In this document: piece by piece, positions 3,418-59,777 of the stretch
How the letters are laid out: every line of letters begins with the position of its first letter
Numbering within the stretch: position 1 is the first letter of the stretch
Origin: a virus
Lineage: Duplodnaviria > Caudoviricetes
Virus record (IMG/VR): IMGVR_UViG_3300020016_000006
Coordinates: 3,433 to 67,432 of that record
Direction: 5' to 3' (one strand)
Length of the DNA: 64,000 bases
Translations under genes and position numbers: made by a program
The notes under the pieces: generated by a model
Seen by the model: only the letters and a program-made list of their open reading frames with translations
Told to the model about the DNA's origin: nothing
Databases searched by the model: none

Positions 3418-3674
3418 TTGATGTACGCGTGGAAACACTCGATGTTGGTAATCCTGATCCTGTACAGTGTAAGGCATGCGATATTAATGCGCAGGCCATG
3501 GCTGTTCTAAGCATCTCAACAACACGTGAACGTGTTAATGGTAAGCGTCGAACGACAACAAAAGATACAGTGAATCATTTCCTTTGTGTTGATTGCGTAT
3601 TACGAATGGCTGCGCTCTTTGAAGTTGCGGTGGATTCATTCATGGAGTCTCATGGAAGAAGGAAGCGTGCGTGA
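3414..3674 (+). CDS. hypothetical zinc-binding protein
   Basis: Two CxxC motifs (CKAC, CVDC). Confidence 0.7.
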   Translation: MIDVRVETLDVGNPDPVQCKACDINAQAMAVLSISTTRERVNGKRRTTTKDTVNHFLCVDCVLRMAALFEVAVDSFMESHGRRKRA

Positions 3675-7483: not shown

Positions 7484-7918
7484 TTACTTCACCTCAGCAG
7501 GAGTGTCCTTCGCCTGATCCCGCATCGCGATCACCGCGGTCCTGACCGCCTTGGCCTTGTCGCTGGCCTTGGCATCGTTCTCGGCAATCACGAACCGATA
7601 CTCACTGCCGATACGAATGGCGTCCAGGATGCCCGCCTCTCCCGCGCTGATCCCGAAGTACCTCACCGTCACATCACGGAGGCCGGTGGCAGCCACAAGC
7701 TCGCTGACCGTTGATCCTGCGCCCTGACGAATGGCGTCCCAGACCTTGCCTTCACGGAGAGGATTGATCCTGCCCTCTGCGAGCGCCTTTGGGTCTGGGC
7801 CGGTCTTGCCGTCCTTGCGTGCTGGGGTGGCCTTGCTGTAGGGAGCGACGGTGACCGTGGGAGTGGGGGTGGTCTCGGTGACCACAGGCTGGGTGCTGTT
7901 CTTCTTGTTGCGCTTCAT
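7484..7918 (-). CDS. winged-HTH-like protein, TG/CA-rich copy (paralog of 8535-9011)
   Basis: ATG at 7918 after AGAACGGGAG RBS; VWDAIRQGAGSTVSELVAATGLRDVTVRYF..LDAIRIGSEYRFV wHTH-like pattern. Confidence 0.85.
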   Translation of the reverse strand: MKRNKKNSTQPVVTETTPTPTVTVAPYSKATPARKDGKTGPDPKALAEGRINPLREGKVWDAIRQGAGSTVSELVAATGLRDVTVRYFGISAGEAGILDAIRIGSEYRFVIAENDAKASDKAKAVRTAVIAMRDQAKDTPAEVK

Positions 7919-8255: not shown

Positions 8256-8323
8256 GCGCGACAATTTCCACTCGACAATTTTGATCGCGACCGAGAACAA
8301 CTCGCGTTAGTCTATCGGACAAC

Positions 8324-8379
8324 TCGGGTTTAATTCGGGTACTATTCGGGTTTCGTTTTTTCCGAAGGATTCGTACTAT
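8324..8379 (+). promoter_or_regulatory. promoter TTTCGT-N17-TACTAT with three TCGGGT boxes at 11-bp period
   Basis: -35 8351-8356, -10 8374-8379; boxes at 8324, 8335, 8346. Confidence 0.75.
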
Positions 8380-8534
8380 AGTCTCGTCGCTCCGCGAAAT
8401 TCGGAAGCCTCCCCCGCGAGGGAAGTAGCCGAGCGACCCGATAGCCGAGCGGGCGCGGTCCCGAGCTAGGCGAACGAAAAACCGAACCCTCCGAGACGGG
8501 CCGCTCCCGTCTCGGTTAACTCCGAGGAGGCTAT

Positions 8535-9011
8535 ACGAAAAACCGAAAGAACCGCGCGACCCGCGCCCCCGAGACGCCCGAGGCTCCCGAGGCCGTAGCT
8601 CCCGAGACGCCCGAGGTTCCGACCGTAACCGTCGCTCCGTACTCGAAAGCGACCCCCGCCCGTAAGGACGGAAAAACCGGACCCGACCCGAAGGCGCTCC
8701 GCGAGGGTCGGATTAACCCCCTCCGCGAGGGTAAGGTTTTCGCGGCGATCCGGGCGGGCGAAGGCTCGACCGTCGCGGAGTTAGTCGCCGCTACCGGACT
8801 CCGAGACGTAACCGTTCGCTATTTCGGAATTTCCGGCGGCGAGGCGGGGATTCTCGACGCTATCCGAATCGGTAGCGAGTACCGGTTCGTCGTTTCCGAA
8901 ACGGACGCGCTAGCGAGCGCGAAGGGTAAGGCCGTAAGGACGGCCGTAATCGCCCTCCGAGACGCGGCGACCGCGACCCCCGCTCCGAGTACCCCCGAGG
9001 CGGCGAAGTAG
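8535..9011 (+). CDS. winged-HTH-like protein, TG/CA-free copy, ACG start (not in ORF track)
   Basis: GAGGAGG-CTAT-ACG; 158 codons to TAG; 100/114 aa identical to the 7484-7918 product; no M, W, C, Q or H. Confidence 0.9.
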   Translation, partial: TKNRKNRATRAPETPEAPEAVAPETPEVPTVTVAPYSKATPARKDGKTGPDPKALREGRINPLREGKVFAAIRAGEGSTVAELVAATGLRDVTVRYFGISGGEAGILDAIRIGSEYRFVVSETDALASAKGKAVRTAVIALRDAATATPAPSTPEAAK

Positions 9012-9018
9012 CTCCTAC

Positions 9019-9045
9019 GGGCCGCTAGGGCGATCCTAGCGGCCC
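9019..9045 (+). other. intercistronic hairpin GGGCCGCTAGG-GCGAT-CCTAGCGGCCC
   Basis: Perfect 11-bp stem between the two island ORFs. Confidence 0.7.
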
Positions 9046-9073
9046 TCCCGCTCCCCTTAGCTTAGGAGGCTAT

Positions 9074-9229
9074 ACGCGCTACCCCTATCTCGGACTTCCG
9101 GCCGCTCCGAGCGTCCGCGAGTCTCTAGAGCGGGCGGCGGAGATTATCGCCCGCCGGATCGTTTCGGAAATTCGATTCGTCCCCGTCGCCCGCGACCTCC
9201 CGCCCTACTCGGGCGAGGACGGTTCGTAA
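9074..9229 (+). CDS. 51-aa hypothetical protein, ACG start (not in ORF track)
   Basis: Same GGAGGCTATACG context as 8535; RYPYLGLPAAPSVRESLERAAEIIARRIVSEIRFVPVARDLPPYSGEDGS then TAA. Confidence 0.75.
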   Translation, partial: TRYPYLGLPAAPSVRESLERAAEIIARRIVSEIRFVPVARDLPPYSGEDGS

Positions 9230-9239
9230 AAACCGAAGG

Positions 9240-9268
9240 GGGGTAGCCGAAACGGCTACCCCTTTTTT
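9240..9268 (+). terminator. intrinsic terminator GGGGTAGCC-GAAA-CGGCTACCCC-T6
   Basis: GC stem with U-tract closing the island. Confidence 0.9.
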
Positions 9269-9354
9269 ACGGGCGGGGAGGGTGCCCCCTCCCACATGCA
9301 GGATGAAATCTGAAACATTTCAGCCATGAACTTTTCATTGATCACCTATGAGTC

Positions 9355-9383
9355 TTTTGTTTTCCCCGAGTGTTCTATAGCTT
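9355..9383 (+). promoter_or_regulatory. candidate promoter TTTTGT-N17-TAGCTT
   Basis: 17-bp spacer, -10 identical to other phage promoters; upstream of ATG 9393. Confidence 0.5.
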
Positions 9384-9392
9384 TATTTTATT

Positions 9393-9551
9393 ATGATCCG
9401 ATACAAAATTTGGTTTGAGCCGAGTGATGACAGTATAATGATGGGCACCACCCCAAGCCAACGAGCCACGGTGCTTCAAGAGTTTATCGCATATACATGG
9501 GAAGAAGCCTTACGCACCTTTGCTCGTTGGAGATCCATACGATTAATCTGA
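9393..9551 (+). CDS. hypothetical protein (52 aa, possibly near-leaderless)
   Basis: MIRYKIWFEPSDD...; ATG about 10 nt after the -10. Confidence 0.5.
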   Translation: MIRYKIWFEPSDDSIMMGTTPSQRATVLQEFIAYTWEEALRTFARWRSIRLI

Positions 9552-9851
9552 GCAGGTTGCGATTAGACGGGCGTGAGATTGCGGTGTGCCACCCCAACAC
9601 GGCCCATGAGATCACGAACAACCCAGAAGTGTTCGATGAACTTATGAGGACACTGCAATGCCACGAGGATGTAACTGTCCGCTTGAAGCCATCCTAGCGC
9701 GTTTGCTCCTGAGGATGACGGATAGGATGCGAGGATGGCAGATCGCTCGGCGCACTGGCCGGCGTAATGATACATTAACAATCATTGACAGGTGTGACAT
9801 TTGCAACCAGCAGTACACTTTAACCTTCACCCCCGACAGGAGACATCCAGA

Positions 9852-10013
9852 ATGAAATACCTCATCATCGCCATCCTACTGCTGCTCCCCGCTACGGGTT
9901 GCTCCGCTCCAACTGAGCCAGGCATCAGCAACTTTAATCCCCCACACAGTATCCAAGCCCTCAATCGGCATAAGCCACCCCCACCCCCACCCGACCCATG
10001 GGAGATAAGGTGA
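9852..10013 (+). CDS. small lipoprotein-like protein
   Basis: MKYLIIAILLLLPATGC signal with lipobox; Pro-rich tail. Confidence 0.6.
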   Translation: MKYLIIAILLLLPATGCSAPTEPGISNFNPPHSIQALNRHKPPPPPPDPWEIR

Positions 10014-34242: not shown

Positions 34243-34512
34243 ATGACAGATCCCAAAACTGATCCCCCAAAGGTCGCTCCTGAAGATGACATTGGTCCAT
34301 TTTATCGTTATCTTGGTGGGCTTCTTGCGGTTGCTGGCGTATGTCTCTTTCTTGTACATGCATATAATCGTCAGACAATTTCATGGATTGATTTTGCCAC
34401 TCTGTGTGTTATCGCACTTCTTGTCCTTGCCATGATTCGCCCTCGGTTCTTCGACAGCACTGTAAAGACCATCGCAGACAAACTCCCGATGTTCAGTTAC
34501 AAAAAGGAATAA
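34243..34512 (+). CDS. putative holin (2 TM)
   Basis: Two TM, basic C-terminus, precedes endolysin. Confidence 0.65.
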   Translation: MTDPKTDPPKVAPEDDIGPFYRYLGGLLAVAGVCLFLVHAYNRQTISWIDFATLCVIALLVLAMIRPRFFDSTVKTIADKLPMFSYKKE

Positions 34513-34516
34513 CGCA

Positions 34517-34993
34517 GTGAGCATCATCATTACGCTGACCAGGGATATGCAGCATGCAGATGGGACGTTTGGTCAGCTTGTGATGCCGGGATGTCCCATG
34601 CTGTATACGATGGAAGATGATTGGCTTGAAAATCTGAAGGGGAAGTCTTGCATCCCGGCGGGAGACTATGACCTTCAGCGCTGTATCTTCCACAGAAAAC
34701 AAATTGAGACGTTTGAAGTAACTGGTGTACCGAACCGAACCCGTATTTTGATCCACCCAGCGAACACTGAGGAAGATGTTGAAGGGTGCATCGGACTTGG
34801 ATTGCGTTTGGGTGAGCTGTATGTAAAAAAGGATGAGGATACGGGTGAGGTCGGAGTGATGAAGAAAGCAGTGGTATCGTCCCGACAAGCCTTTAATACA
34901 TGGATGTGGGCTATGCAAGGGTATGACACCGCTGTGCTGCAAGTCCGTTGGGCCACTGGACTTCCTCGCCCTATAGATCCACTTACTGCTTAG
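34517..34993 (+). CDS. DUF5675-family putative endolysin
   Basis: TFGQL...SCIPAG.Y...VPNRTRILIHPAN...GCIGLG. Confidence 0.85.
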   Translation: MSIIITLTRDMQHADGTFGQLVMPGCPMLYTMEDDWLENLKGKSCIPAGDYDLQRCIFHRKQIETFEVTGVPNRTRILIHPANTEEDVEGCIGLGLRLGELYVKKDEDTGEVGVMKKAVVSSRQAFNTWMWAMQGYDTAVLQVRWATGLPRPIDPLTA

Positions 34994-35001
34994 GAGGGCA
35001 G

Positions 35002-36217: not shown

Positions 36218-36876
36218 AAACTTCCACGTTGGCAATAATTGCTATTGCAATGGCGATTGCCGTTGCAATTACATTGGGTATCCTCACTCGGCCATCTCAG
36301 ACGCTCAATGAAATTATTGCTCAACGGGATTCTGCACAGGCATCTCGGGATAGTGTTCGTATTGTTGCTGAGTCGCTTGTGGATGTGCAAGTGGATCGCC
36401 AAAGAGTCACTGATTCGCTAAAAGCAATCAAACAAAAAACCGATACCGTCATTATCAAACGGATCAAATATCTGACGCCCAAGGTTGCGCACGCGGATTC
36501 AGTGGCTCCTGGTGATACGATCTGGAAGCCCATTGCGTTTGAAGTTATGGACCAGCGTGACTCGCTCCTCGCCAATTCCCTTCGTGCTGATACGGTTATT
36601 GCCCGACAGGATACCACAATCAGAGGCTATATTTTGATTGTGAGGAATTACGAGGCATATACTGATCGTGCTGAACGTCGGATTGGCCAACTAGAGGATT
36701 GGCAGCAAAAGCAGTTGCGAGAGTTCAAGTTGTTTGGCAAGATTCCCCTCCCCAAGCTTCAGGTTACAGCAGGGTTGAATACAAGCCTCAAACCGGATCT
36801 CGTCGCTGGCCTCGGATACACAGTGAAATTCGGCCGGAAGGCCGTGCCCCCGCCCGAGCCTACCCCGGACCCCTAG
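36214..36876 (+). CDS. i-spanin-like protein
   Basis: N-terminal TM, long coiled coil, end of lysis cassette. Confidence 0.55.
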   Translation: MKTSTLAIIAIAMAIAVAITLGILTRPSQTLNEIIAQRDSAQASRDSVRIVAESLVDVQVDRQRVTDSLKAIKQKTDTVIIKRIKYLTPKVAHADSVAPGDTIWKPIAFEVMDQRDSLLANSLRADTVIARQDTTIRGYILIVRNYEAYTDRAERRIGQLEDWQQKQLREFKLFGKIPLPKLQVTAGLNTSLKPDLVAGLGYTVKFGRKAVPPPEPTPDP

Positions 36877-36905
36877 CGGACTAGCCTGCGAAAACGGGAC
36901 ACGTC

Positions 36906-37132
36906 AATATTCCCTATTAGGGCTCTCGCGAGAGGGTGCGTATGAAAAATAAAAAATATTTTGCTAATAGGGAATATTTCTCGTTCAGTCAGCTAGGATA
37001 ACCCCCGGCTAGGATAACGACTTACAATGATATTAGTAAACCATATTAGAATGTTCAAGAGGGAATAGGCATGATAACTCATTATCGGATCGAAACTTAC
37101 ATCGTCTATTCACCGGGTGTGTTTCGCAAAAC
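36906..37132. repeat. dispersed AT-rich element copy 2
   Basis: AATATTCCCTATTAGGGCTCTCGCGAGAG, ATTTTGCTAATA, CACCGGGTGTGTTTCGCAAAAC shared with 6086-6320. Confidence 0.75.
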
Positions 37133-46855: not shown

Positions 46856-46999
46856 GATATCCATTTCAGATTAAACTTGATGTAAATTGGAAATGGTGGG
46901 AAGTGGGCTTCGGCATTAACTTTGGAACATATGATGAATGGTTCATTACCGTCAGTATCGGGCCTTTCATGTTAACAATTGGCTGGCAGGAGAAAATTT

Positions 47000-47350
47000 A
47001 TGAACCTCAAGAACTTTAGTCATGTCAATCGGTTACGTTGTGAACACCCGGAAGGGTTCAATCACAACTTAAATGATTGGTCACTTTCCGATTGGTTCAC
47101 TGCGATGCTAGGTGAATTTGGAGAGGCAGCGAATGTTGCGAAGAAACTCAACAGGTTTCGCGACGGCATCCGTGGTAACAAAGAAACCAAGGAGCAGCTT
47201 CAAGAACAACTGGAAGATGAACTCGCGGATGTCTTCATATATCTTGATCTTCTTGCTCAGCGTTCTGGATTTGATCTTAGTGATGCGGTTGTAAGAGTAT
47301 TTAACAGGAAGTCTGATTCTCTGGGCTGCCAAATAAAACTCGCACCCTGA
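47000..47350 (+). CDS. MazG-like NTP pyrophosphohydrolase
   Basis: GEFGEAANVAKK..EDELADVFIYL..FNRKS. Confidence 0.85.
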   Translation: MNLKNFSHVNRLRCEHPEGFNHNLNDWSLSDWFTAMLGEFGEAANVAKKLNRFRDGIRGNKETKEQLQEQLEDELADVFIYLDLLAQRSGFDLSDAVVRVFNRKSDSLGCQIKLAP

Positions 47351-47655: not shown

Positions 47656-48336
47656 ATGACTGAGTTCATGGCCGACTATCTCTATTACACAGTATCAGAT
47701 GATCCCAGCCAAAAATTTGGGATCAGCGTGAAAGGTTTCACCCGGCGCAATCGGGCAGAAATCTTTGCCAAGACGGCCAAGAATCCCATTATCATTCGCT
47801 ACTCCAAGGTTGAACTGTCTCGACTCAAGATGGGACAGTTAATGAATATCGTGCGCACCGGAAGGGATGATGCGCCGAAGGTAACGCAGATGGGACGAGA
47901 TGATCTTGTCCTAGCTGCGTATGGCTGCCTTTGGGCGGCCTGTGTACGCACTGGGACGTTACAGCCACATGATCCCAGTGACTCTATCATCAACGAGGAG
48001 AACGGACAGATGGCGAAGAAGAACACTGGCGGCGACACCGCCACGGCAGAGGCTCCCGCGGGCAACGTTCGTCAGATGCGTGGTGCGAAGAAGGCCACTG
48101 GCGAGGGCGCGACGGCTGAGAAGCCCAAGCGTGAGGCCAAGCCGGATGAGTATGCCGGGAAGCGCATCAGCCTGGTGAGCAAGGACAACCCTCGGCGCGA
48201 GGGCACCCACGGCCACCGCTCCATGGAAGTGGTTCGCAACAAGCCCGGCATCACCTATGAAGATTACATCTCGGGTGGTGGCCGGCGCGTTGACCTGAAG
48301 GGCAGCATTGAGCTTAAGCAGGTGGAGCTTAAGTAA
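47656..48336 (+). CDS. putative DNA-binding protein with likely internal start at 48010
   Basis: GAGGAG RBS before ATG 48010; Lys/Ala-rich tail then NPRREG..TYEDY..DL domain. Confidence 0.65.
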   Translation: MTEFMADYLYYTVSDDPSQKFGISVKGFTRRNRAEIFAKTAKNPIIIRYSKVELSRLKMGQLMNIVRTGRDDAPKVTQMGRDDLVLAAYGCLWAACVRTGTLQPHDPSDSIINEENGQMAKKNTGGDTATAEAPAGNVRQMRGAKKATGEGATAEKPKREAKPDEYAGKRISLVSKDNPRREGTHGHRSMEVVRNKPGITYEDYISGGGRRVDLKGSIELKQVELK

Positions 48337-49302
48337 GTGCTGATCGTCGGTGCTGGGATGGCCGGCCTGCTGGCGGGGCATATACTCCGCCGGCACCGGC
48401 CACTCATCGTGGAAGCGCAGGAGTCCTTGCCAAATAACCATGCGGCCCTCCTGCGCTTCAAGACGCCGAAAGTCTCAGAGGCAACGGGCATCCCCTTCCT
48501 CAAGGTCTATGTCCGCAAAGCAGTTATGACAAGCAAGGGCCTTTCCGACCGGCCGAGTCTTGCGGACAATAATGAGTATTCAATCAAGGTAACTGGCGAA
48601 GCACTCGACCGATCAGTACTTGATCTGAGTCCTGGCGAGCGATATATTGCTCCTGAGGATTTCATAAGTCAGATGGAAAGTAATCTGAACATCCAGTTTG
48701 GGTACAAGTGGAATCCAACTCGGGATGAGTTTGATATTAATCAGCCCGAGGATGGCACGATCATTAGCACTGTTCCGATGCCGACACTAATGAAGATGGT
48801 TGAATGGCCGGCGATTCCTGAGTTCAAGCATAAGCGAATATGGACCGTTACGGCATATGTTGAAGATCCACCAGCCAGTTTGTACCAGACAATTTATTAT
48901 CCAGACCGGAGGCGTGACTACTATCGAGCCTCTTTGACGGGCAACCGCCTCTCATTAGAATACATTCAGTCAGTAGAGAGGGAAATAGCACAGATGGATG
49001 TGATGAAGGTTCTGGATGATTTCGGAATCTATCATCCAAAATGGAATATGAAGCCGCTTATTCATTATCATGAAGAGTATATCAAAGCACAGTTTTACGG
49101 TAAGTTGCTTCCAATTGATGAGATGGAGCGTAAGGCATTCATCATCGGGATGACGGATAAGTATGATATCTGGAGCCTCGGGCGATTCGCTACATGGCGA
49201 CAGATTCTCCTTGATGATGTAGTAGATGATGTGAAATTCATTGACCGCGTCGTTACCCAGAAGGATCAGTATCACCGCCGAATGCACCACCACAATAGCT
49301 AA
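48337..49302 (+). CDS. FAD-dependent oxidoreductase/mutase-like protein (UDP-galactopyranose mutase-like)
   Basis: IVGAGMAG dinucleotide-binding motif; C-terminal GRFATWRQ..DDVV like Glf GR..Y motif. Confidence 0.7.
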   Translation: MLIVGAGMAGLLAGHILRRHRPLIVEAQESLPNNHAALLRFKTPKVSEATGIPFLKVYVRKAVMTSKGLSDRPSLADNNEYSIKVTGEALDRSVLDLSPGERYIAPEDFISQMESNLNIQFGYKWNPTRDEFDINQPEDGTIISTVPMPTLMKMVEWPAIPEFKHKRIWTVTAYVEDPPASLYQTIYYPDRRRDYYRASLTGNRLSLEYIQSVEREIAQMDVMKVLDDFGIYHPKWNMKPLIHYHEEYIKAQFYGKLLPIDEMERKAFIIGMTDKYDIWSLGRFATWRQILLDDVVDDVKFIDRVVTQKDQYHRRMHHHNS

Positions 49303-49443
49303 CAACAGCCGGCTTCGTGCCGGGGGAGCGACCAATATGTGGCGTGAATTCCTAACCATCATGGGGATCATCTACGCCTGCTCGTTCGCGCTGGCACTCG
49401 TGTACCTATTGATCGGCGCACTGGCCGGGAAGGTTCATGTCGA

Positions 49444-49686
49444 ATGAATATCCAAGAGGCATTGGAAAAGAAACGGCAAGCCAAAAAGTGGTTTCGCAGT
49501 CTTACTCGCGAGGCATTGCTAGAGTTTCTTGCCGATACAGCATATCGTCTTAATGAGCTTGAAGGGGCCGCGATACTTGAAAATGAAAATGATGAAGAGT
49601 TTAGCAATCATATTCTCGACGCAGTGGAGAATGTAAATGCTGCGTATAAGGCAGAAACACGTTCTGAACTCCCGGCATTAACATGA
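49444..49686 (+). CDS. hypothetical protein
   Basis: In-operon ORF. Confidence 0.6.
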   Translation: MNIQEALEKKRQAKKWFRSLTREALLEFLADTAYRLNELEGAAILENENDEEFSNHILDAVENVNAAYKAETRSELPALT

Positions 49687-50663
49687 CAGTCAAGTTGCTA
49701 ACCTATACACCTGATGCGCTAGATATCATGCTGATGACGAAGCAGACTCGGCTGGATTTTAACCCCGAGATGCTGGAGGAGATTCGGCAATGGCCGATGG
49801 AGCAGAAATTGAAGGAACTGGCGTACATGCGTGGGACTATTCAGAGCAGTTGGGAATTTGTGGATTATACTTTTTTGTTGACGGGCGTATCGCGGGCCTT
49901 TACTCATCAGTTTGTTCGGACGCGACAAGGTTCCTACGCGCAGCAATCGCAGAGAACAGTAGACATGCAGGGATTTGATTATCTGGTCCCGAATGAGCTT
50001 CGGGAGAAGGATCTGGGTGAGGATGATTCTCCGCTTACCAAGACATCCGAATACGGGATTGATTTTCTTGACTTGGATGAGACGGTCAACACATCCCCGG
50101 ACATGTCCAGCGGTAGAAATTGGTATGATTGGGGAATGCTCGCCGCTGAACACGCCTATGCCAAGATGCGCGAAAAGGGAGTCAATCCTCAAGATGCGAG
50201 GGGTGTCCTTCCAACAAATATCGCTACAAATATCGTGGCGAAGTTTTCATTACGTGCCCTCTCAGATATGGCCAAGATCAGGCTTTGCACTCGCACTCAG
50301 GGTGAGTATCAAGACATCTTCCGCGAGATGCGTAAGCGAGTGATTGAAGTTCATCCTTGGGCCGAGCAGTTCATAGAAGTCCACTGCGTGGCGCTCGGGG
50401 TGTGTGCGTTCCCAAATTATATGGAGTGTCCAATTAAGGGTCCGCTCCTGAACCCTGAGACGGGACTTCGATGGGATGAGGCTCAGACCAAACGGACTCT
50501 CACAATACTTCCCAATCCTGAGAATGGTCTCAAGGACAAGATATTCCATACCATGGAGTATCCAGCTCACCCGGCTCCTCGGTGGTGGGTAAAGCAGAAG
50601 TGGGAGGAGCTACGGTATGAGGCTGTGCCGAAGCAACATAAGAACGAAGGGGAAGTACCATGA
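49683..50663 (+). CDS. thyX: ThyX-like flavin-dependent thymidylate synthase homolog with atypical RTR motif
   Basis: VSRAFTHQFVRTRQGSYAQQSQR, PQDARGVLP, R.CTRTQGEYQ. Confidence 0.85.
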   Translation: MTVKLLTYTPDALDIMLMTKQTRLDFNPEMLEEIRQWPMEQKLKELAYMRGTIQSSWEFVDYTFLLTGVSRAFTHQFVRTRQGSYAQQSQRTVDMQGFDYLVPNELREKDLGEDDSPLTKTSEYGIDFLDLDETVNTSPDMSSGRNWYDWGMLAAEHAYAKMREKGVNPQDARGVLPTNIATNIVAKFSLRALSDMAKIRLCTRTQGEYQDIFREMRKRVIEVHPWAEQFIEVHCVALGVCAFPNYMECPIKGPLLNPETGLRWDEAQTKRTLTILPNPENGLKDKIFHTMEYPAHPAPRWWVKQKWEELRYEAVPKQHKNEGEVP

Positions 50664-50842
50664 GGTTCCCACCGCATGAACCTTGGTTTGTGTATTATCT
50701 TCCCGATAAAGGATGGTGTATGATAGCTGCTTATGGCAAGGGAGAAAATGGTTATTACAAAGCTACGCAGCAATCTAGAATATCCAATAAGGAGCTAGGA
50801 AATGTCCCGGATTCCGGGGCTAGTCGGGTCCGTCCGAGATAG
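50660..50842 (+). CDS. hypothetical protein
   Basis: ATGA overlap. Confidence 0.45.
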   Translation: MRFPPHEPWFVYYLPDKGWCMIAAYGKGENGYYKATQQSRISNKELGNVPDSGASRVRPR

Positions 50843-50881
50843 AGACGCAGCTGCATACAGGCGCCTAGGAGGCTGAAAAAC

Positions 50882-51352
50882 GTGCTTTCGACCCCCGCGA
50901 CCGTTCCGCCCGCGACTATTTGGGCAATCATAGACTTGGACGGTACTCTTTGTGATATTACCCATCGGCTTCACATTCTTTCGGAGCCAAAAAAGAAATG
51001 GGCCGAGTTTCATGCATTACTTGTAGATGATATTCCCAATTTAGCCATTAGTATCATCATGAGAGCAATCCGAGGATATGGAGTTCGCATTGCGCTATGT
51101 ACGGGCCGGCCTGAGGAGTATCGAGATGAGACAATGGATTGGCTAAGAAAACACGCTATTGATTGGGATCGTCTTTTGATGCGCCCTGAGGGGAATTATC
51201 AATCTGATGACCTCGTTAAGCCAGCCCTCGCGGCCGACGCAGGGCTAACAAAGGATAATGTCCTTTTCATAATGGAGGATAGAGACAAAATGGTCCGCAT
51301 GTGGAGACAGCTAGGCTTCGTATGCTTTCAGGTTCAGGAGGGAGCATACTGA
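50882..51352 (+). CDS. HAD-family phosphatase (PNK-phosphatase-like)
   Basis: DLDGTL, TGRP, K.., EDR motifs I-IV. Confidence 0.88.
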   Translation: MLSTPATVPPATIWAIIDLDGTLCDITHRLHILSEPKKKWAEFHALLVDDIPNLAISIIMRAIRGYGVRIALCTGRPEEYRDETMDWLRKHAIDWDRLLMRPEGNYQSDDLVKPALAADAGLTKDNVLFIMEDRDKMVRMWRQLGFVCFQVQEGAY

Positions 51353-52137
51353 TGAAGAAGGATCAAATTTCTGGAATGTACATAAAGGATCAGAAGAAAC
51401 AACATGATTACGCGGTGCGGATTGTTCGCGCCCCCTCGCATCGTACCGCAGTCGTCACCGGCGCAAGCAAGCGAGGAAGTATCGGTCAGGCCATTGTGGA
51501 GATGCTTACGGGAATACCATACCACTCGATTCACTATCCTGCTGAATATCAACTTGACGTCACGAATCCAGATCAGGTTGAACGATACTTTACAAGTCTC
51601 GCCGGAATGGATACGCTTATCTGTTCTCATGGTGTAAATGCGATGTCGTGGTTTGAGAATATGAGCATTATGGATATAACCAGAATTATTGATGTAAATC
51701 TAACAGGATCGGCCATTGTGGCTCATTCCTTCGTGAATCGTACACTTGGACTCCCGTGGCGTAAACAGATCATCTTTATCGGGTCCATGGCGTATAATCA
51801 CGTGCTGAATGCCTCGGCTGCTTATTGCGCGAGTAAAGCAGGATTGGCAATGCTGACACGGTGTCTCGCTTGGGAATTGGCACCGAAGGGATATGATGTC
51901 TTCTGTGTTCACCCATCCAATACGGAGGGTGCGCCAATGACTGAGGATACAATCCAAGGCATCATGTCATATAGAAATGTCCCTCGGGAGGAGGCAGAAG
52001 GATACTGGGGTGCGGTACTGCCGCGCCATCGTTGGCTCCAGCCAAAAGATATTGCGCGAACGATTGAACATCTTCTCAAGGATGAATCGGGGTATCTTTC
52101 AGGGGCCAATCTTGAACTCGCGGGAGGTCAGCGATGA
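51352..52137 (+). CDS. short-chain dehydrogenase/reductase (SDR)
   Basis: TGASKRGSIG, VNLTG, GSM, YCASK. Confidence 0.9.
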   Translation: MKKDQISGMYIKDQKKQHDYAVRIVRAPSHRTAVVTGASKRGSIGQAIVEMLTGIPYHSIHYPAEYQLDVTNPDQVERYFTSLAGMDTLICSHGVNAMSWFENMSIMDITRIIDVNLTGSAIVAHSFVNRTLGLPWRKQIIFIGSMAYNHVLNASAAYCASKAGLAMLTRCLAWELAPKGYDVFCVHPSNTEGAPMTEDTIQGIMSYRNVPREEAEGYWGAVLPRHRWLQPKDIARTIEHLLKDESGYLSGANLELAGGQR

Positions 52138-52670
52138 GGCCTGATATGTCCATTCGGTATGCTGATGCACGCCGTGCGATTGCGGAGCATCTAGCGCACA
52201 CCGTCGTTAGTCGCTTGGCGATGCGGTTTGCTTATTCAGCCGATCTACCTGATGCCCCGCCGGGTATGACCCCAGTCATGAATAATGATGATTTACGGAA
52301 TTATGAAACTGAACTAACGGCCATTGCTGTACAAGACTTAAAATTGCTTGGAGAAGTATTTGGCGATGTGTTCCTTCAGTATAATGGCATTGAACCAACT
52401 GATTCTAATTTAGCACAGTTTAATGTCTTCATGGAAGCTATGTCACTCTACGATGAGCGCAATAAAAGATACAAGGATCAGTGGAAGGAATCTGGTTGGA
52501 TGGGCGCTCTCTATGATATACGCAAAAAGGCGGCAAGGTTGTTTCGTCAATTCTTTGGTGAAGAACCAACCGAGGGCGCCAGTGAGGATGACGCATGGGA
52601 TCTCATCAACTTCGGCGGATTCTTCATCCGTGGACGACGGGAACAAAACAAGTGGGGGAATTGGCTGTGA
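52134..52670 (+). CDS. DUF1599 / nucleotide-modification-associated domain 1-like protein
   Basis: ERNKRY.DQW...I.KK..RL...ED...DLINF. Confidence 0.7.
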   Translation: MRPDMSIRYADARRAIAEHLAHTVVSRLAMRFAYSADLPDAPPGMTPVMNNDDLRNYETELTAIAVQDLKLLGEVFGDVFLQYNGIEPTDSNLAQFNVFMEAMSLYDERNKRYKDQWKESGWMGALYDIRKKAARLFRQFFGEEPTEGASEDDAWDLINFGGFFIRGRREQNKWGNWL

Positions 52671-53563
52671 TTAATGATGATATCTTCCGAACGATGAGCC
52701 TTGGGATTATTCTGCCATCAAATAATCCTGATGACTACTTCACGAAATTCAGCCCGAGCCTTCCATATCTCAGGAGTGGACTAGAGCGATTGGATATCAA
52801 GATTCTTATATGTGCCCAAGAGCCATGGACTGAGGTAAAACTCGCAGAGGCAAAATATATTGCCATGAGTGAAGGTTTAGATTTGCGAGCTATTCTTCAC
52901 TCCGCTGAATCACCTCCGAGAATGTGTTACTTTCGGCAGCAAGCGGCGAATCTCTTTCCCAATGCATCAATCTACATGCTCGCAGATGATAATATGAGCT
53001 TCTATAAGGGACTTGGAACAGAGGAGATTCCACATGGACTCACCAGCGGACGATGTTACGCCGAAGTCCTTGACTATATGTTCCATTATCCCCGGTGCGG
53101 ACTTGTACAATGCCATACGACAGCACCAACAGGATTTGGCCGTAGCATCAGACCTACTAGCAATGGCCTTATCACCACTAACAAAGGCTTATTCATCCGC
53201 AATCTCAATAGAGGCTACCTGTGGCCACAATGGTCCTGGTCGTTCAAGTCCTCTCTTGAAGAGACTATTGCGGGATATAGAGTGCTTGATCAGGGCTACT
53301 TCCCAGCCAGACAGCATCAGAATCCGACAATACACACCATCCACAAAATAGGCGACGACGACGCACTACATAGTCATGATCTGATTTACGCAAATGCCGG
53401 GAGATGGGTGCGAGAGTTTTATCAGTCGCCTGAGTGGGATCACCAAGATGGACTCTTTCCTGAAATGCTAATTGATTCGGCAGTTAAGAATGCACCTATG
53501 GACGAGGTGACATTTTTCTCGGCTAACCCTCGGTTCATCAGGCGGTATGATGATATTAGCTGA
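52667..53563 (+). CDS. putative GT-A fold glycosyltransferase
   Basis: IILPS beta1, RQQAA..IYMLADDNMSF metal/NDP-sugar motif region. Confidence 0.55.
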   Translation: MINDDIFRTMSLGIILPSNNPDDYFTKFSPSLPYLRSGLERLDIKILICAQEPWTEVKLAEAKYIAMSEGLDLRAILHSAESPPRMCYFRQQAANLFPNASIYMLADDNMSFYKGLGTEEIPHGLTSGRCYAEVLDYMFHYPRCGLVQCHTTAPTGFGRSIRPTSNGLITTNKGLFIRNLNRGYLWPQWSWSFKSSLEETIAGYRVLDQGYFPARQHQNPTIHTIHKIGDDDALHSHDLIYANAGRWVREFYQSPEWDHQDGLFPEMLIDSAVKNAPMDEVTFFSANPRFIRRYDDIS

Positions 53564-54089
53564 TACGGAGAGTACAGGCCTCCATGAGATCACGGCTGCT
53601 CCCTTGGAGCGACAACCACGAATCATTGAAATTGCACTTCGGAAGATTGATGATAAGACGTTGAAGCTAAAAGAAGATTTCCAAACATTGATCAATCCTG
53701 GTATACCGATTCCGGCAAAGAATGTTGAGATAACAGGCATCACTGATGAAATGGTCAAAGATGCGAAGCGATTCGCGGCATGGTTCAATACATTGGTTGA
53801 CTTTTTCCTCGGGGAGCAGATTCTTGTTGGCCATAATCTTCCCTATGATGTACAAATTATGTTATGGGAACTTACGCGCATCGACAAGATCACCAAATTC
53901 CCGTGGCCGCCAGTACACTACTGTACCGTAGAATTGACACAAGATTTGAGTGGTAAGTATTTCAACTTGAATGATCTTTATGTTCATTATTATGGACATC
54001 CACCAGAACACAAGGCGCACCGAGCGATGGCTGATGTGATTACCCTTCACGAAGTTGTGAAAGCCATGAGGAAGGAGAAACGACTGTGA
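53547..54089 (+). CDS. DEDDh 3'-5' exonuclease (Pol III epsilon-like)
   Basis: DTESTG, GHNLPYD, AHRAMAD. Confidence 0.92.
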   Translation: MMILADTESTGLHEITAAPLERQPRIIEIALRKIDDKTLKLKEDFQTLINPGIPIPAKNVEITGITDEMVKDAKRFAAWFNTLVDFFLGEQILVGHNLPYDVQIMLWELTRIDKITKFPWPPVHYCTVELTQDLSGKYFNLNDLYVHYYGHPPEHKAHRAMADVITLHEVVKAMRKEKRL

Positions 54090-54387: not shown

Positions 54388-54617
54388 AGCCTGGCGAATG
54401 GCTTCACCTCAAAAATCTTTCAGGGGCAAGAAGTAATATCTGGCGTTGCTATATTGCTTGGAATATGTATTGGCAAGCTAATGAAATAAACAACGGAACA
54501 GCATGGGAGCTTCGTGGTTGGAATAATAATGATGGCGGAGTAACTGATCCACAGATTTTTGATACATTAGAAGATGTCCGAGATTGGGCTAAAACGCACA
54601 CCCCCGAGTTCAAATGA
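54384..54617 (+). CDS. hypothetical protein
   Basis: GTGA overlap. Confidence 0.6.
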   Translation: MKPGEWLHLKNLSGARSNIWRCYIAWNMYWQANEINNGTAWELRGWNNNDGGVTDPQIFDTLEDVRDWAKTHTPEFK

Positions 54618-57499
54618 TTCAGCTTCGCCTAAGATCTGAGTATTGCTTCCGCCGGGCCTTTGGCCGAGTAGAGAAGGTGCTGGATTCGGCGGAAGGAGAT
54701 GCCGTTGCCACAACGGACCCAGGTTCATGGGGCCACGCGATCTTTTATAAGGCGGCAAAAGCCAGGCAACGGAGAGCTCTACTTGGCTGCGAAGTGTATG
54801 TGATCCCCTCACATGAGGATGAGAAGGAAAAGCGTGGCGGAGTGTACGGTGCATTCCTTGCTAGGAATCAACGAGGGCTGGAGGAGTTATATGAGTGGAT
54901 CACAATGGCCAATCAAGCACCCCGGTTCTACCATTGGCCACGACTCGACTACGCTGATATCAATCAAGCAACTAAAACGCGCAACTTGGTCTACTTATCG
55001 GGATCTGGTGCCAGGATTGATCTCCTCAGGAACCGTCCGAACGTCTATCTGGAAATCAATCCGTCGAACCCTGCATGGAACAGAAGGGCAATGAAGGAGA
55101 AGGGGTGGAGCAAAGTCGTTTGCTGCGACAATCTCTATCCTACCGTCAGCGATCGAGTGGCGTGGGAAATATTGAGTGGTCTTGGTCCCGGCAAGAAGGG
55201 CCTCGGTGCTCCCGGCAGGACTAGTCCTCAGCATATTCTGAATGAGGATGAACTTCGGCTCGCTTGCCCCGAGGCGGGACGTGAGGAGTTTTTGAATACC
55301 GAGCGGATCGCAGCTGAGTGTGATGTTGCGATGCCGAAGGCGACAATGGTTAAGATGGACTGGCCTAAGACACTAGAGCAGATGTGTAAGGAAGGGTGTA
55401 AGCGGCGAGGGTTCAAGACGCATCGTAAACCAAGTGGCAAATGGTCTATGGCTGATGAAGTTTACAATGATCGCCTCTGGCTGGAATTGGAGATGATCCA
55501 TACGAAGAAATTTGAGGATTATTTCTATGTCATTGCCGATTTGGTTCAAGAAGCCAAGAAACATATGCTTGTCGGCCCTGCTCGCGGCAGCAGCGCTGGG
55601 AGTTTGGTCTGCTACCTTCTGGACATTACGGACGTGGATCCAATCGTACACGACCTTATGTTTGAACGTTTCATCGACATCACACGTGCCGATCTACCCG
55701 ACATTGACATCGACTTCCAGGATAACAAACGAGAGTTGGTCGCTCAGCACTTGTCCTCCAGATATGGAGCTGAGCGTGTTGGACAGCTTGGGACCATCCT
55801 CACATACAAGGCTAAGTCTGCCATTGGTGATGTGGCAAAAACAGTCGGCATTCCCATGTACGAAGTCGCAGACCTCAAGGGAGCAATAATTGAGAGGAGC
55901 AGTGGAGATGCCCGAGCGCAGTTCTGCATCGCTGATACATTTGAGACGCTCGACATTGGAAAGGAAATGCTCAAGAAATATCCGTCGCTTGCCTTGGCAG
56001 GCGAATTGGAGGGGCATGCTCAGTACTCTGGGACTCATGCTGCTGGAGTCATCGTTACCAATGATCCGGTCACTCGCTACGCCGCCATCGATCATAGCGG
56101 CTCAGCCCAGATTGATAAGAAATCCGCGGAGGTTCTCAACATCCTCAAAATTGACGCCTTGGGGTTACGAACCTTATCAGTCCTCCAAGACACGCTTGAT
56201 CAGATTGGTAAAGATCGAGATTGGCTCATCCATTACCCATTGGATGACACCGAGGCATTTGAGGTTTTTAATGAGGAACGCTTTACTGGAATTTTCCAAT
56301 ACGAAGGTAAGGCACTTCAGATTCTCACCAAGCAGATGAAGATAAGGAGCTTCGATGATGTCGCTGTCATCACCGCACTGGCTCGCCCCGGCCCTCTACA
56401 TTGTGGGGCTGCTAACGAGTTTATTGCTCGTCGTATTGGCGCTAGTCCAGTTAGTTATCTCCATCCAGTTGCGAAACCATTCACAGAACAAACCTACGGA
56501 ACCGTCATCTATCAAGAACAGGTAATGATGATATGTAGGCACATCGGGCAATTGTCATGGGATGATGTCCAGACGATTCGCCGGGCAATGTCTAAATCAA
56601 TGGGGGATGAATTCTTTGGAAAATATCTTGAGCGATTCGTTGAAGGAGCGATCCGACAAGGCATGGTCGGAGCTGATGCAAAGAATGTCTGGGACAAGAT
56701 CTGCACTTTTGGCTCTTGGGCATTCAATAAGAGTCACGCAGTTAGCTATGGACTCATTAGTTACTGGTGTGCGATGCTTAAGGCCCGATACCCCCTTGAG
56801 TTTGCCGCCGCATGTTTACGGAATGCATCTGATGAAGAACAAAGCATCAAAATGCTCCAAGAAGTCACAAAGGCTGGGCTAGAATATGTTCCTGTGGATT
56901 CTGAAAAATCTGGGTTGACATGGAGTGTAGTGGATGGGAAGCTACTTGGTGGGTTGACGAATATTAAAGGTGTTGGCCCGAAGAAAGCTGAGCAGATTCT
57001 AAGGTGTCGCGGAAACGGCGCGGCCAGAAGTCTCCCCCGAGGATTACGCACGCTCCTAGAGGCTGCACAGACGCCCTACGGCGACATTTTCCCCGGCCAG
57101 CGGCGATTCGCGGACCTCTACGCTGATCCGCCGAAGTACAACGTCCATAGTGGGGCAATCAGCTTTTGCCAAGATATGTCGGAGCCAGGTGAGTATGTCT
57201 TTATTGCTCGGATCAGAGAAAAGAACCAACGGGATATGAACGAGGCGCACTCTCTAGCCGCCAGAGGCGGCAGAGTGATCAAACGCAATAACCTCTTTCT
57301 CAACTTGGTACTTGAGGATGATACTGGATTAGTGTTTGCGACGATTGGCCGATTCCAGTATTCTGCCATCGGCAAGAAGATCATTGAAGAAGCCAAAGTT
57401 GGTGATTGGTTTCTCTGGAAGGGGAAAATTGAGCCTAAGTGGCAGAAAGTCTACATTGAGAAGTATCGCAACTTGGAGACTGATGAATGGCCGAAGTAA
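54614..57499 (+). CDS. dnaE: DNA polymerase III alpha subunit (family C)
   Basis: PHP-like N-terminus, GPARGSSAGS, PDIDIDF, HAAG, LKID.LG, FNKSH, OB-fold C-terminus. Confidence 0.96.
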   Translation: MIQLRLRSEYCFRRAFGRVEKVLDSAEGDAVATTDPGSWGHAIFYKAAKARQRRALLGCEVYVIPSHEDEKEKRGGVYGAFLARNQRGLEELYEWITMANQAPRFYHWPRLDYADINQATKTRNLVYLSGSGARIDLLRNRPNVYLEINPSNPAWNRRAMKEKGWSKVVCCDNLYPTVSDRVAWEILSGLGPGKKGLGAPGRTSPQHILNEDELRLACPEAGREEFLNTERIAAECDVAMPKATMVKMDWPKTLEQMCKEGCKRRGFKTHRKPSGKWSMADEVYNDRLWLELEMIHTKKFEDYFYVIADLVQEAKKHMLVGPARGSSAGSLVCYLLDITDVDPIVHDLMFERFIDITRADLPDIDIDFQDNKRELVAQHLSSRYGAERVGQLGTILTYKAKSAIGDVAKTVGIPMYEVADLKGAIIERSSGDARAQFCIADTFETLDIGKEMLKKYPSLALAGELEGHAQYSGTHAAGVIVTNDPVTRYAAIDHSGSAQIDKKSAEVLNILKIDALGLRTLSVLQDTLDQIGKDRDWLIHYPLDDTEAFEVFNEERFTGIFQYEGKALQILTKQMKIRSFDDVAVITALARPGPLHCGAANEFIARRIGASPVSYLHPVAKPFTEQTYGTVIYQEQVMMICRHIGQLSWDDVQTIRRAMSKSMGDEFFGKYLERFVEGAIRQGMVGADAKNVWDKICTFGSWAFNKSHAVSYGLISYWCAMLKARYPLEFAAACLRNASDEEQSIKMLQEVTKAGLEYVPVDSEKSGLTWSVVDGKLLGGLTNIKGVGPKKAEQILRCRGNGAARSLPRGLRTLLEAAQTPYGDIFPGQRRFADLYADPPKYNVHSGAISFCQDMSEPGEYVFIARIREKNQRDMNEAHSLAARGGRVIKRNNLFLNLVLEDDTGLVFATIGRFQYSAIGKKIIEEAKVGDWFLWKGKIEPKWQKVYIEKYRNLETDEWPK

Positions 57500-58384: not shown

Positions 58385-58798
58385 ATGAAGTGGGGTTATG
58401 CGGGAAGTGCATCAATGGGGACTAAGCATGGGCATAGCCCACGACATGGACCAAAGAGTCCAACCTACCAATCATGGCAGCATATGAAGGATCGTTGCTA
58501 TAACAAAAACAGTGAATTTTACCAACAGTATGGTGGGAGGGGGATACGTGTCTGTAAACGATGGTTCTACTCATTTAGTAACTTTCTCAAAGACCTGGGT
58601 GAACGACAATCTGGAACCTCCCTTGACCGAATTGATCCAAGGGGTCATTATACGCCGTCTAACTGCCGATGGGCTACAACAACTGAACAGAATCTTAACC
58701 GGAGAAACTCAAAAATCAATAAGCGGAGAAAACAGAGACGAAGGGCGCCAAGACTTCATGAGGGAGACCGTCGTCATACTCAGGAGGCCGAAGCATGA
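58385..58798 (+). CDS. HNH endonuclease
   Basis: MKDRC..YGGRGIRVC..SLDRIDPRGHY..NCRWAT. Confidence 0.9.
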   Translation: MKWGYAGSASMGTKHGHSPRHGPKSPTYQSWQHMKDRCYNKNSEFYQQYGGRGIRVCKRWFYSFSNFLKDLGERQSGTSLDRIDPRGHYTPSNCRWATTTEQNLNRRNSKINKRRKQRRRAPRLHEGDRRHTQEAEA

Positions 58799-59177: not shown

Positions 59178-59609
59178 ATGACTACAGAACTCAGGAAATT
59201 TGATCGAAGGTATCACGGATCACGCATTGAGAATGCAGTGGGCAGCGGCACGCCAGATGTAACCCAATGTATCAAGGGAGTGGAGCATTGGGTAGAAATG
59301 AAGGGCATGCAAAAGTTCAGAGGGAAGCCCAGTTCTGTTCTGCATCTGCCTCATGAACTCCGAGACACCCAACGCAAATGGCTCAGGAACAGATGGGATG
59401 CCGGAGGGAATTGCTGGGTCGTGCTCGGAGTCAGAGAACCAAAGGAATGGTTGATCTGGACCGGCCCCGTTGCTGCCGCCTATCTTGGTTTTGAAACACG
59501 AGAACGAATGATTAACCTTGCGGCAGTGCACGTGGTGGGTAACTTCCCGTCAGCGGCATTTTACGAGACCATTCGGGAGCGGCAGTCCGTGATCTCTAAC
59601 CTCTATTAG
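59178..59609 (+). CDS. PD-(D/E)xK nuclease (VRR-NUC/resolvase-like)
   Basis: RIEN..GTPDV..WVEMK..QRKW. Confidence 0.8.
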   Translation: MTTELRKFDRRYHGSRIENAVGSGTPDVTQCIKGVEHWVEMKGMQKFRGKPSSVLHLPHELRDTQRKWLRNRWDAGGNCWVVLGVREPKEWLIWTGPVAAAYLGFETRERMINLAAVHVVGNFPSAAFYETIRERQSVISNLY

Positions 59610-59614
59610 AGGCC

Positions 59615-59678
59615 GTTTCGTTTTTTCCGAACGCGCAACTGCTGGTATCTTTCGCTTTTTCCTGCTGTATAGTATCGT
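59615..59678 (+). promoter_or_regulatory. putative early promoter TTTCGC-N17-TATCGT, with upstream 17-mer identical to the island promoter
   Basis: GTTTCGTTTTTTCCGAA at 59615 equals 8350-8366. Confidence 0.65.
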
Positions 59679-59777
59679 TAGATAGCGGGGAGACGAACGC
59701 CCCGCACTATAGAAGGCAACGCCTGAGGGGCCGACCCCCTCGGCAACCAATTAACCCCGGCCGACCCGGAGGATATC

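Follow-up and report, generated by a model that had tools for sequence, protein, structure and literature searches.

The window analysed here is a 64 kb stretch (64,000 nucleotides, positions 3,433 to 67,432) of the 67,432-bp phage genome IMGVR_UViG_3300020016_000006, a soil-metagenome assembly that is present in two studies. Its genes lie nearly throughout on the plus strand, and directly before those for a DnaQ-type exonuclease and a DnaE-type polymerase stands a run (47656-53563) that includes genes for a flavoprotein resembling UDP-galactopyranose mutase (UGM), a ThyX homologue, a HAD phosphatase, a short-chain dehydrogenase/reductase (SDR), a protein remotely like DUF1599/Nmad1 and a GT-A-fold glycosyltransferase-like protein. 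Our favoured reading, which we hold with about even confidence, is that this run is an accessory operon of the replication module that would make, or help to make, a sugar-bearing thymine (a 5-substituted uracil) in the phage DNA. Elsewhere the window contains an island that is free of the dinucleotides TG and CA, which fits a mark placed at TG without proving it.

A mark of this kind has been measured in Pbunavirus phages. The DNA of phages F8 and 14-1 carries a sugar-like thymidine at TG according to liquid chromatography coupled to mass spectrometry (LC-MS) and restriction mapping, about a quarter of T being replaced by a new nucleoside, of 362 u in F8 and of 390 u in 14-1, and enzymes whose site includes TG are blocked while EcoRI, HindIII, XbaI, DraI and BsaI, whose sites are TG-free, cut (Yee et al. 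2025 preprint, PMC12191111). We find that 27% of T in 14-1 lies in TG, which fits the marking of every TG site. By mass arithmetic the two nucleosides are dT + 120 and dT + 148, equal to 5-hydroxymethyldeoxyuridine (5-hmdU) plus a tetritol (362) or a pentose (390), each less one water; alternatively, 362 is equal to 5-(tetrahydroxypentyl)-dU, that is, the deoxynucleoside of phage SP-15 (330 u) with two additional oxygens. F8 and 14-1 have in common with the window phage the flavoprotein (35% identity), a ThyX of the same R-T-R type (about 40%) and the HAD phosphatase, located at the same site before DnaQ and DnaE. Their hosts and virion genes are different, and 14-1 further differs in having no SDR, GT-A or separate Nmad1-like gene, a HAD protein with an extra C-terminal domain, and no TG/CA-free island. 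The preliminary description of the window, made without database searches, had proposed a sugar-modified pyrimidine at TG; such a mark does exist in phages that share the core of the cluster, but the preprint names no genes for it and states that the genes of other known modification pathways are missing from these phages (PMC12191111).

The gene order flavoprotein, ThyX, HAD, variable genes, DnaQ, DnaE is widely repeated among phages. It is seen in Wifcevirus Bas99, Vibrio phage VA-RY-3 and Pbunavirus 14-1, and also in Ss1, Pluto, Carpasina, Gekk3-15 and one Ralstonia phage (nine of nine named relatives are syntenic), in marine Pam3-like contigs and in all 17 of the long IMG/VR contigs sampled; overall the module is rare, being present in 362 of 50,697 phage records. 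Its most constant partner is the flavoprotein, which is present even in contig L059, where the stretch read gave no ThyX call, and the HAD protein is in many cases joined to, or accompanied by, a MazG/Nmad1-like domain. What changes is the slot between HAD and dnaQ: it is empty in 14-1, VA-RY-3 has a sulfotransferase-like gene there, and Bas99, Pluto, Carpasina and Gekk3-15 have an SDR. The combination of SDR, Nmad1-like and GT-A genes is confined to the window phage and close relatives from metagenomes, which have the whole cluster including GT-A, and a lineage carrying a GT-A and an Nmad1-like gene in the tailoring slot is new. The sulfotransferase-like gene of VA-RY-3 (L002:10265-11020; PF13469, 5.8e-7) stands at the place of the SDR, next to a HAD protein that ends in a DUF3310 match, and the GC-rich relative L003, which shares the whole cluster, encodes a sugar-nucleotide enzyme of the epimerase/GDP-mannose-dehydratase family about 9 kb downstream (L003:20042-20897). 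At the DNA level, a search with the cluster and with the island against the 50,697 phage records gave zero matches.

The TG/CA-free island that the preliminary description had pointed out is real, as there is not a single TG or CA across its 963 bp, while the longest other gap in the genome is 56 bp (expected maximum about 58 bp, with a mean of one TG/CA per 6.8 bp). All other genes of the genome are normal at 0.10-0.16 TG/CA per bp. Both island genes, encoding a winged-helix protein and a 51-residue product, lie behind GGAGGCTAT-ACG, and a terminator hairpin is located at the island end. No tRNA genes were found in the phage, and an ACG-reading initiator tRNA is therefore not phage-encoded. 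A TG/CA-rich paralogue of the winged-helix gene adjoins on the opposite strand, and an absolute island with ACG starts together with a TG-rich twin gene in one genome is, like the composition of the slot, a new observation. Besides the island, only 36822-37024 and 59591-59743 drop to at most 8 TG/CA per 150 bp; these two intergenic stretches coincide with sites that had been marked as a promoter or AT-rich element in the preliminary description.

A homologous island is present on metagenome contig L056 (Ga0068864_100331037, positions 161-854), where 693 bp with 68% DNA identity to the window island again contain zero TG/CA. The same promoter-like AATTCGGGTACTATTCGGGTTTCG box and the same GGAGGCTAT-ACG start are found there, the winged-helix protein is 79% identical, and the purge stops 13 bp 5′ of the ATG of the next gene (852-854). 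When 199 random substitutions were introduced into the window island in a simulation, about 57 TG/CA arose, and never fewer than 38 over 2000 trials. As the L056 homologue has none where about 57 would be expected, selection against TG/CA in the island is not in doubt. A protein search with the island paralogue against the 50,697 phage records returned no match, nor did exact-pattern scans of IMG/VR for the island promoter and for the context of Shine-Dalgarno sequence and ACG.

If the island reflects a mark made by the module, other phages with the module may be purged as well, and the preliminary description had proposed islands in relatives with the cluster as a check. As a measure of purging we took the 600-bp window poorest in TG/CA and divided its count by the genome mean, for 27 module-bearing genomes (chosen by module, with lineages partly related) and for T7, lambda, T1 and phiKMV as controls. 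This ratio is 0.00 for the window phage, 0.21 for Bas99, 0.37 for VA-RY-3 and 0.43 for Ss1, compared to 0.57-0.78 for the other five named relatives and 0.69-0.75 for the controls. Further module-bearing IMG/VR genomes have islands in 2 of 17 cases. In G006 (IMGVR_UViG_3300020201_000027), 1097 bp at 8866-9962 are entirely without TG/CA and contain three genes with ATT starts on the minus strand, in the context GGAGGCTACT-ATT; in G017 (IMGVR_UViG_3300022562_000664), a 600-bp window at about 34377-35000 is at 0.02 of the genome mean. These islands, absolute or nearly so and in two unrelated genomes that carry the module, are also new. In total, purging is strong in six of the 27 genomes (the window phage, Bas99, VA-RY-3, Ss1, G006 and G017) and in none of the four controls, and the remaining 21 lack it.

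In Bas99, genes 0098, 0100 and 0101 have 0.02-0.045 TG/CA per bp as compared to 0.143 genome-wide, flank divergent promoters and still start with ATG. The purged block of this Wifcevirus resembles the window island in consisting of small genes beside divergent promoters and in its compensating rise of CG and TA, which is general in the purged windows of the relatives; in the window phage, however, the purge is absolute, forces ACG starts and has a TG-rich paralogue next to it. Neither the purged genes of Bas99 and VA-RY-3 nor the 17 IMG/VR contigs encode relatives of the island proteins, so purging is not a trait of one protein family. There is no simple correlation between the presence of an SDR and the depth of the purge. 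Together this supports an association of module and purge, within the limits of a module-chosen sample, related lineages, few controls and a marked genus without an island.

A TG/CA dip at 50.5-51.5 kb of 14-1 was rejected as a purge, because it corresponds to the low-complexity gene gp67, AC/GT dips there too and A makes up 7% of the bases. The genes concerned, 14-1 gp67 (L005:5994-6878) and Bas99_0053 (L001:8008-8847), encode long K/E/A-rich low-complexity proteins with a small conserved C-terminal domain, and their joint TG/CA and AC/GT dips can be mistaken for a purge. In the window their position, directly 5′ of the flavoprotein gene, is taken by the 226-residue protein, which is 38% identical to its counterpart in L003 and aligns weakly to those of 14-1 and Bas99.

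Table 1. Features of the window discussed in the text (window positions; ORF, open reading frame; NTP, nucleoside triphosphate)
Feature	Position	Strand	Basis
TG/CA-rich paralogue of the island winged-helix gene	7484..7918	-	83% amino-acid identity over 130 residues; winged-helix fold neighbours
TG/CA-free island, 963 bp	8321..9283	.	zero TG/CA; winged-helix gene 8535-9011 and 51-residue ORF 9074-9229
MazG-like NTP pyrophosphohydrolase	46979..47350	+	PF12643 3.5e-6, PF03819 1.4e-4; weak PHROG pyrophosphatase matches
226-residue protein without family	47656..48336	+	no Pfam, PHROG or NCBIfam match
UGM-like flavoprotein, 321 residues	48337..49302	+	phrog_4828 family, fold matches
80-residue ORF	49444..49686	+	sub-threshold Pfam matches alone, none significant
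ThyX homologue, R-T-R-x7-S in place of R-H-R-x7-S, C-terminal extension	49683..50663	+	PF02511, TIGR02170
60-residue ORF	50660..50842	+	ORF list
HAD phosphatase, PNKP-phosphatase type, 156 residues	50882..51352	+	PF25109 2.5e-24; phrog_415; DLDGT
Classical SDR, FabG-like	51352..52137 (ORF open from 51301)	+	PF13561, PF00106, TGxxxGxIG, YxxxK
178-residue protein, C-terminal ~90 residues remotely DUF1599/Nmad1-like (all-alpha, MazG-type)	52134..52670	+	
GT-A-fold glycosyltransferase-like protein, ~290 residues	52694..53563 (ORF open from 52595; start at 52694 inferred)	+	
DnaQ-type 3′-5′ exonuclease	53547..54089	+	PF00929 1.1e-23
DnaE-type DNA polymerase III alpha	54614..57499	+	tblastn, 37-42% identity to phage DnaE proteins

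All genes listed in the preliminary description between 48337 and 53563 are present as a single close-packed, co-directional run on the plus strand (Table 1), and its gene calls proved essentially right, those of ThyX, HAD and SDR by profile and that of GT-A by fold. ThyX scores 118 bits against PF02511 (cut-off 24.8; 5e-34) and 92.8 bits against TIGR02170 (cut-off 87.9), but the ThyX signature RHRx7S is not matched, as the window motif reads RTRQGSYAQQS. The ThyX proteins of all module relatives have R-[T/N]-R, several with T for the final S, where M. tuberculosis ThyX has RHR. The HAD protein consists of the phosphatase domain alone, with the DxDxT nucleophile motif close to its N-terminus and no kinase domain. 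The SDR (PF13561, 2e-24; PF00106, 1.7e-20) has a TGASKRGSIG cofactor motif and YCASK, and its start is likely the ATG that overlaps the HAD stop.

The flavoprotein was more difficult to place. Its N-terminus shows a dinucleotide-binding motif (PF13450, E 0.0012, under the cut-off), and it belongs to phrog_4828 (1.7e-64), a family of 2082 homologues that are nearly all unnamed. Its AlphaFold2 model (pLDDT, the predicted score of the local distance difference test, 87; built on 39 homologues) retrieves UGMs first in Foldseek at E about 1e-10, and VIA-align gives Z 18.6 for UGM, 17.8 for protoporphyrinogen oxidase (PPOX) and 16.2 for amine oxidases. There is no Pfam match to the GLF family up to E 10, and a profile search of the sequences in the PDB finds UGM only at E 0.73. 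The earlier 'Glf-like' designation therefore holds as the best fold match and the best reading at hand, but since the Z scores for PPOX and amine oxidases are close to that for UGM it is nearly a tie and tentative, without a GLF profile match.

For the 178-residue protein there are zero Pfam matches up to E 10. In a protein atlas based on language-model features, DUF1599/Nmad1 accounts for 23 of the 30 nearest clusters (score 0.90), and residues 89-176 give a template modelling (TM) score, normalised to the cluster model matched, of 0.72. Of the 706 relatives retrieved by a profile search, one of 40 sampled touches PF07659 (E 0.0038), and the same type of C-terminal motif also ends the longer HAD protein of 14-1. 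The likeness to DUF1599 seen in the preliminary description is thus only a remote one, lacking a match of the protein itself to PF07659. The GT-A call is confirmed at fold level: the AlphaFold2 model (pLDDT 90) matches TarS, TarP, SpsA and RmlT with E about 1e-7 and probability 1.00, and also resembles many viral GT-A proteins. No Pfam glycosyltransferase family is matched, and homologues number nine in total among 5.8 billion proteins; D99 and N101 of the ADDN (DxD-type) motif are invariant across the nine. Searches of IMG/VR, 14-1, Bas99, VA-RY-3, Gekk3-15 and Ralstonia PY059 found no GT-A homologue, and as they ran without a positive control this absence is weak evidence.

Upstream of the run, the MazG-like protein, 1 kb from the cluster, is a possible pool-editing partner. 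The genes preceding the run encode UvrD-type, Dda-type and further helicases, a primase-polymerase and products like Pam3 gp32-34.

Known systems offer partial parallels for such a pathway. Phage SP-15 has two Thy1/ThyX-family genes, one of them a proposed non-canonical synthase, with a reductase gene adjoining, and its base 5-(4′,5′-dihydroxypentyl)uracil carries a ribose-derived pentyl side chain on C5 and is made as the triphosphate (PMC5977210). Judged by these gene descriptions, a ThyX-family gene, a neighbouring reductase and glycosyltransferases that decorate the base further are common to both systems; unlike the mark considered here, the SP-15 base is built at the triphosphate level, and neither a TG context nor a UGM-like flavoprotein is reported. 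The exocyclic methylene of ThyX, reached via carbon transfer through a flavin-N5 iminium, can be trapped by nucleophiles, a precedent for diverted chemistry (PMC8989533). Phages of the hmdU type (ViI, M6, PhiW-14 and SP10; PMC8989533) resemble the proposed pathway in that T is replaced in part, phosphatases and pyrophosphatases edit the pool, tailoring follows replication and the DNA is protected from restriction, but they depend on a ThyA-family dUMP hydroxymethylase, a P-loop 5-hmdU DNA kinase and amino-acid:DNA transferases. No member of these families was detected among the scanned window-phage proteins. Phages with hydroxymethyluracil exclude dTMP/dTTP (PMC5977210). A paper on phage T dioxygenases (10.1101/2025.08.14.668559) makes no mention of Pbunavirus or ThyX, and the E. 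coli HS phage paper deals with different modifications. In Bas99 (PQ850618.1), there are 89 AGACC sites, which are TG/CA-free and belong to EcoP1_I, to which the phage is strongly sensitive. Its 92 CACAG sites equal the published site count for EcoCFT_II, to which it is resistant. From this equal count we take CACAG to be the EcoCFT_II site, and the contrast between the two systems fits a mark at TG.

The run may act in the following way. ThyX and the UGM-like flavoprotein are of classes that use covalent flavin-N5 adducts, UGM acting through a flavin-N5-sugar adduct, and would jointly build a carbon or sugar substituent on uracil C5. The role of the HAD phosphatase and the MazG-type domains would be to take off a terminal phosphate or to run down the competing dTTP/dTMP, and the SDR would tailor the sugar. 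In base J, a GT-A-fold enzyme glucosylates hydroxymethyluracil in DNA, and the lineage-specific GT-A would likewise place another sugar on the base within DNA. The likeness to base J and the TET/JBP systems lies in the GT-A fold class, with models of phage 'TET-associated glycosyltransferases' among the fold matches; these are no better than generic GT-A matches, however, and no TET/JBP dioxygenase was found. The island would be the one unit that has to work on fully marked incoming DNA, with every markable site purged at the cost of ACG starts, and the TG-rich paralogue of its winged-helix gene would serve later. Base J hinders RNA polymerase II, a parallel to the proposed reason for a mark-free transcription unit. 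We consider improbable a stronger version, in which the flavoprotein and the RTR-type ThyX weld a sugar-derived chain onto C5 at TG, GT-A adds a second sugar, the mark stops the host RNA polymerase, and the TG/CA-free, ACG-start 'bootstrap' unit with its recoded winged-helix regulator is the first gene readable from marked DNA.

Several points weigh against an accessory operon for a sugar-bearing thymine. The main gap is that a pool-level route through ThyX alone cannot give a mark confined to TG, so that a ThyX product incorporated by the polymerase, as put forward in the preliminary description, cannot by itself be its source. The same description cast GT-A as the TG-specific writer, a role at odds with the searches, in which neither GT-A nor the 178-residue protein appeared in any phage outside the window lineage, those with mark or purge included, weak evidence as this is for GT-A. 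It also took a genome-wide excess of TG/CA as a sign of the mark, but this excess is ordinary (rho* 1.18, compared to 1.16 for lambda and 1.17 for phiKMV, both unrelated) and should leave the argument. The unpurged module-bearing genomes (21 of 27) include 14-1, where the mark is proven, and because the core is inherited alongside the replication genes, its co-occurrence with the Pbunavirus mark is not independent evidence. The fold match of the flavoprotein to UGM is nearly tied with those to PPOX and amine oxidases, and a ThyX above the NCBIfam equivalog cut-off fits plain dTMP synthesis. Wifcevirus resists EcoRI, the site of which is without TG/CA (19 GAATTC in Bas99), and a TG mark leaves this resistance unexplained. 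Finally, the window phage is known from soil metagenomes alone.

If the cluster instead serves ordinary nucleotide supply, ThyX would make dTMP, HAD would be a 5′-nucleotidase or PNKP-type repair phosphatase, the MazG-type domains would clean the pool, the flavoprotein and SDR would be redox helpers, GT-A would glycosylate a non-DNA target such as an envelope polymer of the host or a protein, and the island would have an unrelated cause. The equivalog score of ThyX, the co-inheritance of the module with DnaQ/DnaE in every relative, the wall-teichoic-acid glycosyltransferases as top structural matches of GT-A and the lack of a purge in most module-bearing phages are all in line with this. We nevertheless rate it as somewhat unlikely, as the RHR signature is changed across the whole group, the most constant partner is a flavoprotein of UGM/PPOX fold for which no part in dTMP synthesis has been described, a slot of changing tailoring enzymes is untypical of housekeeping, and Pbunavirus carries a sugar-like T mark for which PMC12191111 names no genes. 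A TG mark could also be present with its sequence-reading writer encoded elsewhere, the cluster supplying only a precursor, either an activated sugar or, as SP-15 does, a modified analogue of dUTP. No DNA-binding or base-flipping domain is recognisable in the cluster proteins, many genes of the genome have no family, and the pentyl-uracil of SP-15 is indeed made at the triphosphate level (PMC5977210). However, about 40 scanned proteins include no TET/JBP, DNA kinase, transglycosylase or methyltransferase family, and GT-A is of the fold class that forms base J by glucosylating hydroxymethyluracil in DNA, making an on-DNA step inside the cluster plausible; we regard a writer elsewhere as decidedly unlikely.

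The island, in turn, might have nothing to do with a mark of the phage, and either evade a host factor recognising CA/TG in DNA or RNA or, for reasons of translation, strip NUG starts from both strands. The lack of TG/CA is formally equivalent to having no NTG triplet on either strand, and 14-1 is marked yet island-free. Because the purged genes of Bas99 retain their ATG starts, however, loss of start codons is not the aim, and all six purged genomes carry a module found in so few of the phage records, in a sample that was chosen by module and has partly related lineages. We know of no nuclease with CA/TG dinucleotide specificity, which also counts against an island unlinked to the mark, and we judge this explanation unlikely.

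The run bears on the therapeutic Pbunavirus phages, whose enzymes of TG thymidine hypermodification are unassigned in print; the cluster with its relatives offers a short list of candidates that can be tested. Such marks determine which defences (restriction, END-type and others) a phage evades or sets off, and the variable slot with its SDR, sulfotransferase-like and GT-A genes predicts chemical variety of the mark. If the islands mirror the mark in the genome, a modification's sequence context could be read from the genome sequence alone, and a phage DNA mark would disturb gene expression enough to force recoding, non-canonical starts and gene duplication.

Two further features of the genome were noted. 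An HNH endonuclease gene (window 58385-58798; phrog_374, 4.5e-39) lies 0.9 kb 3′ of dnaE and has a 49%-identical copy in Cronobacter phage Ss1. The ends of the record (1-105 and 67328-67432, about 100 bases) are identical in sequence, indicating a circular or terminally redundant assembly.

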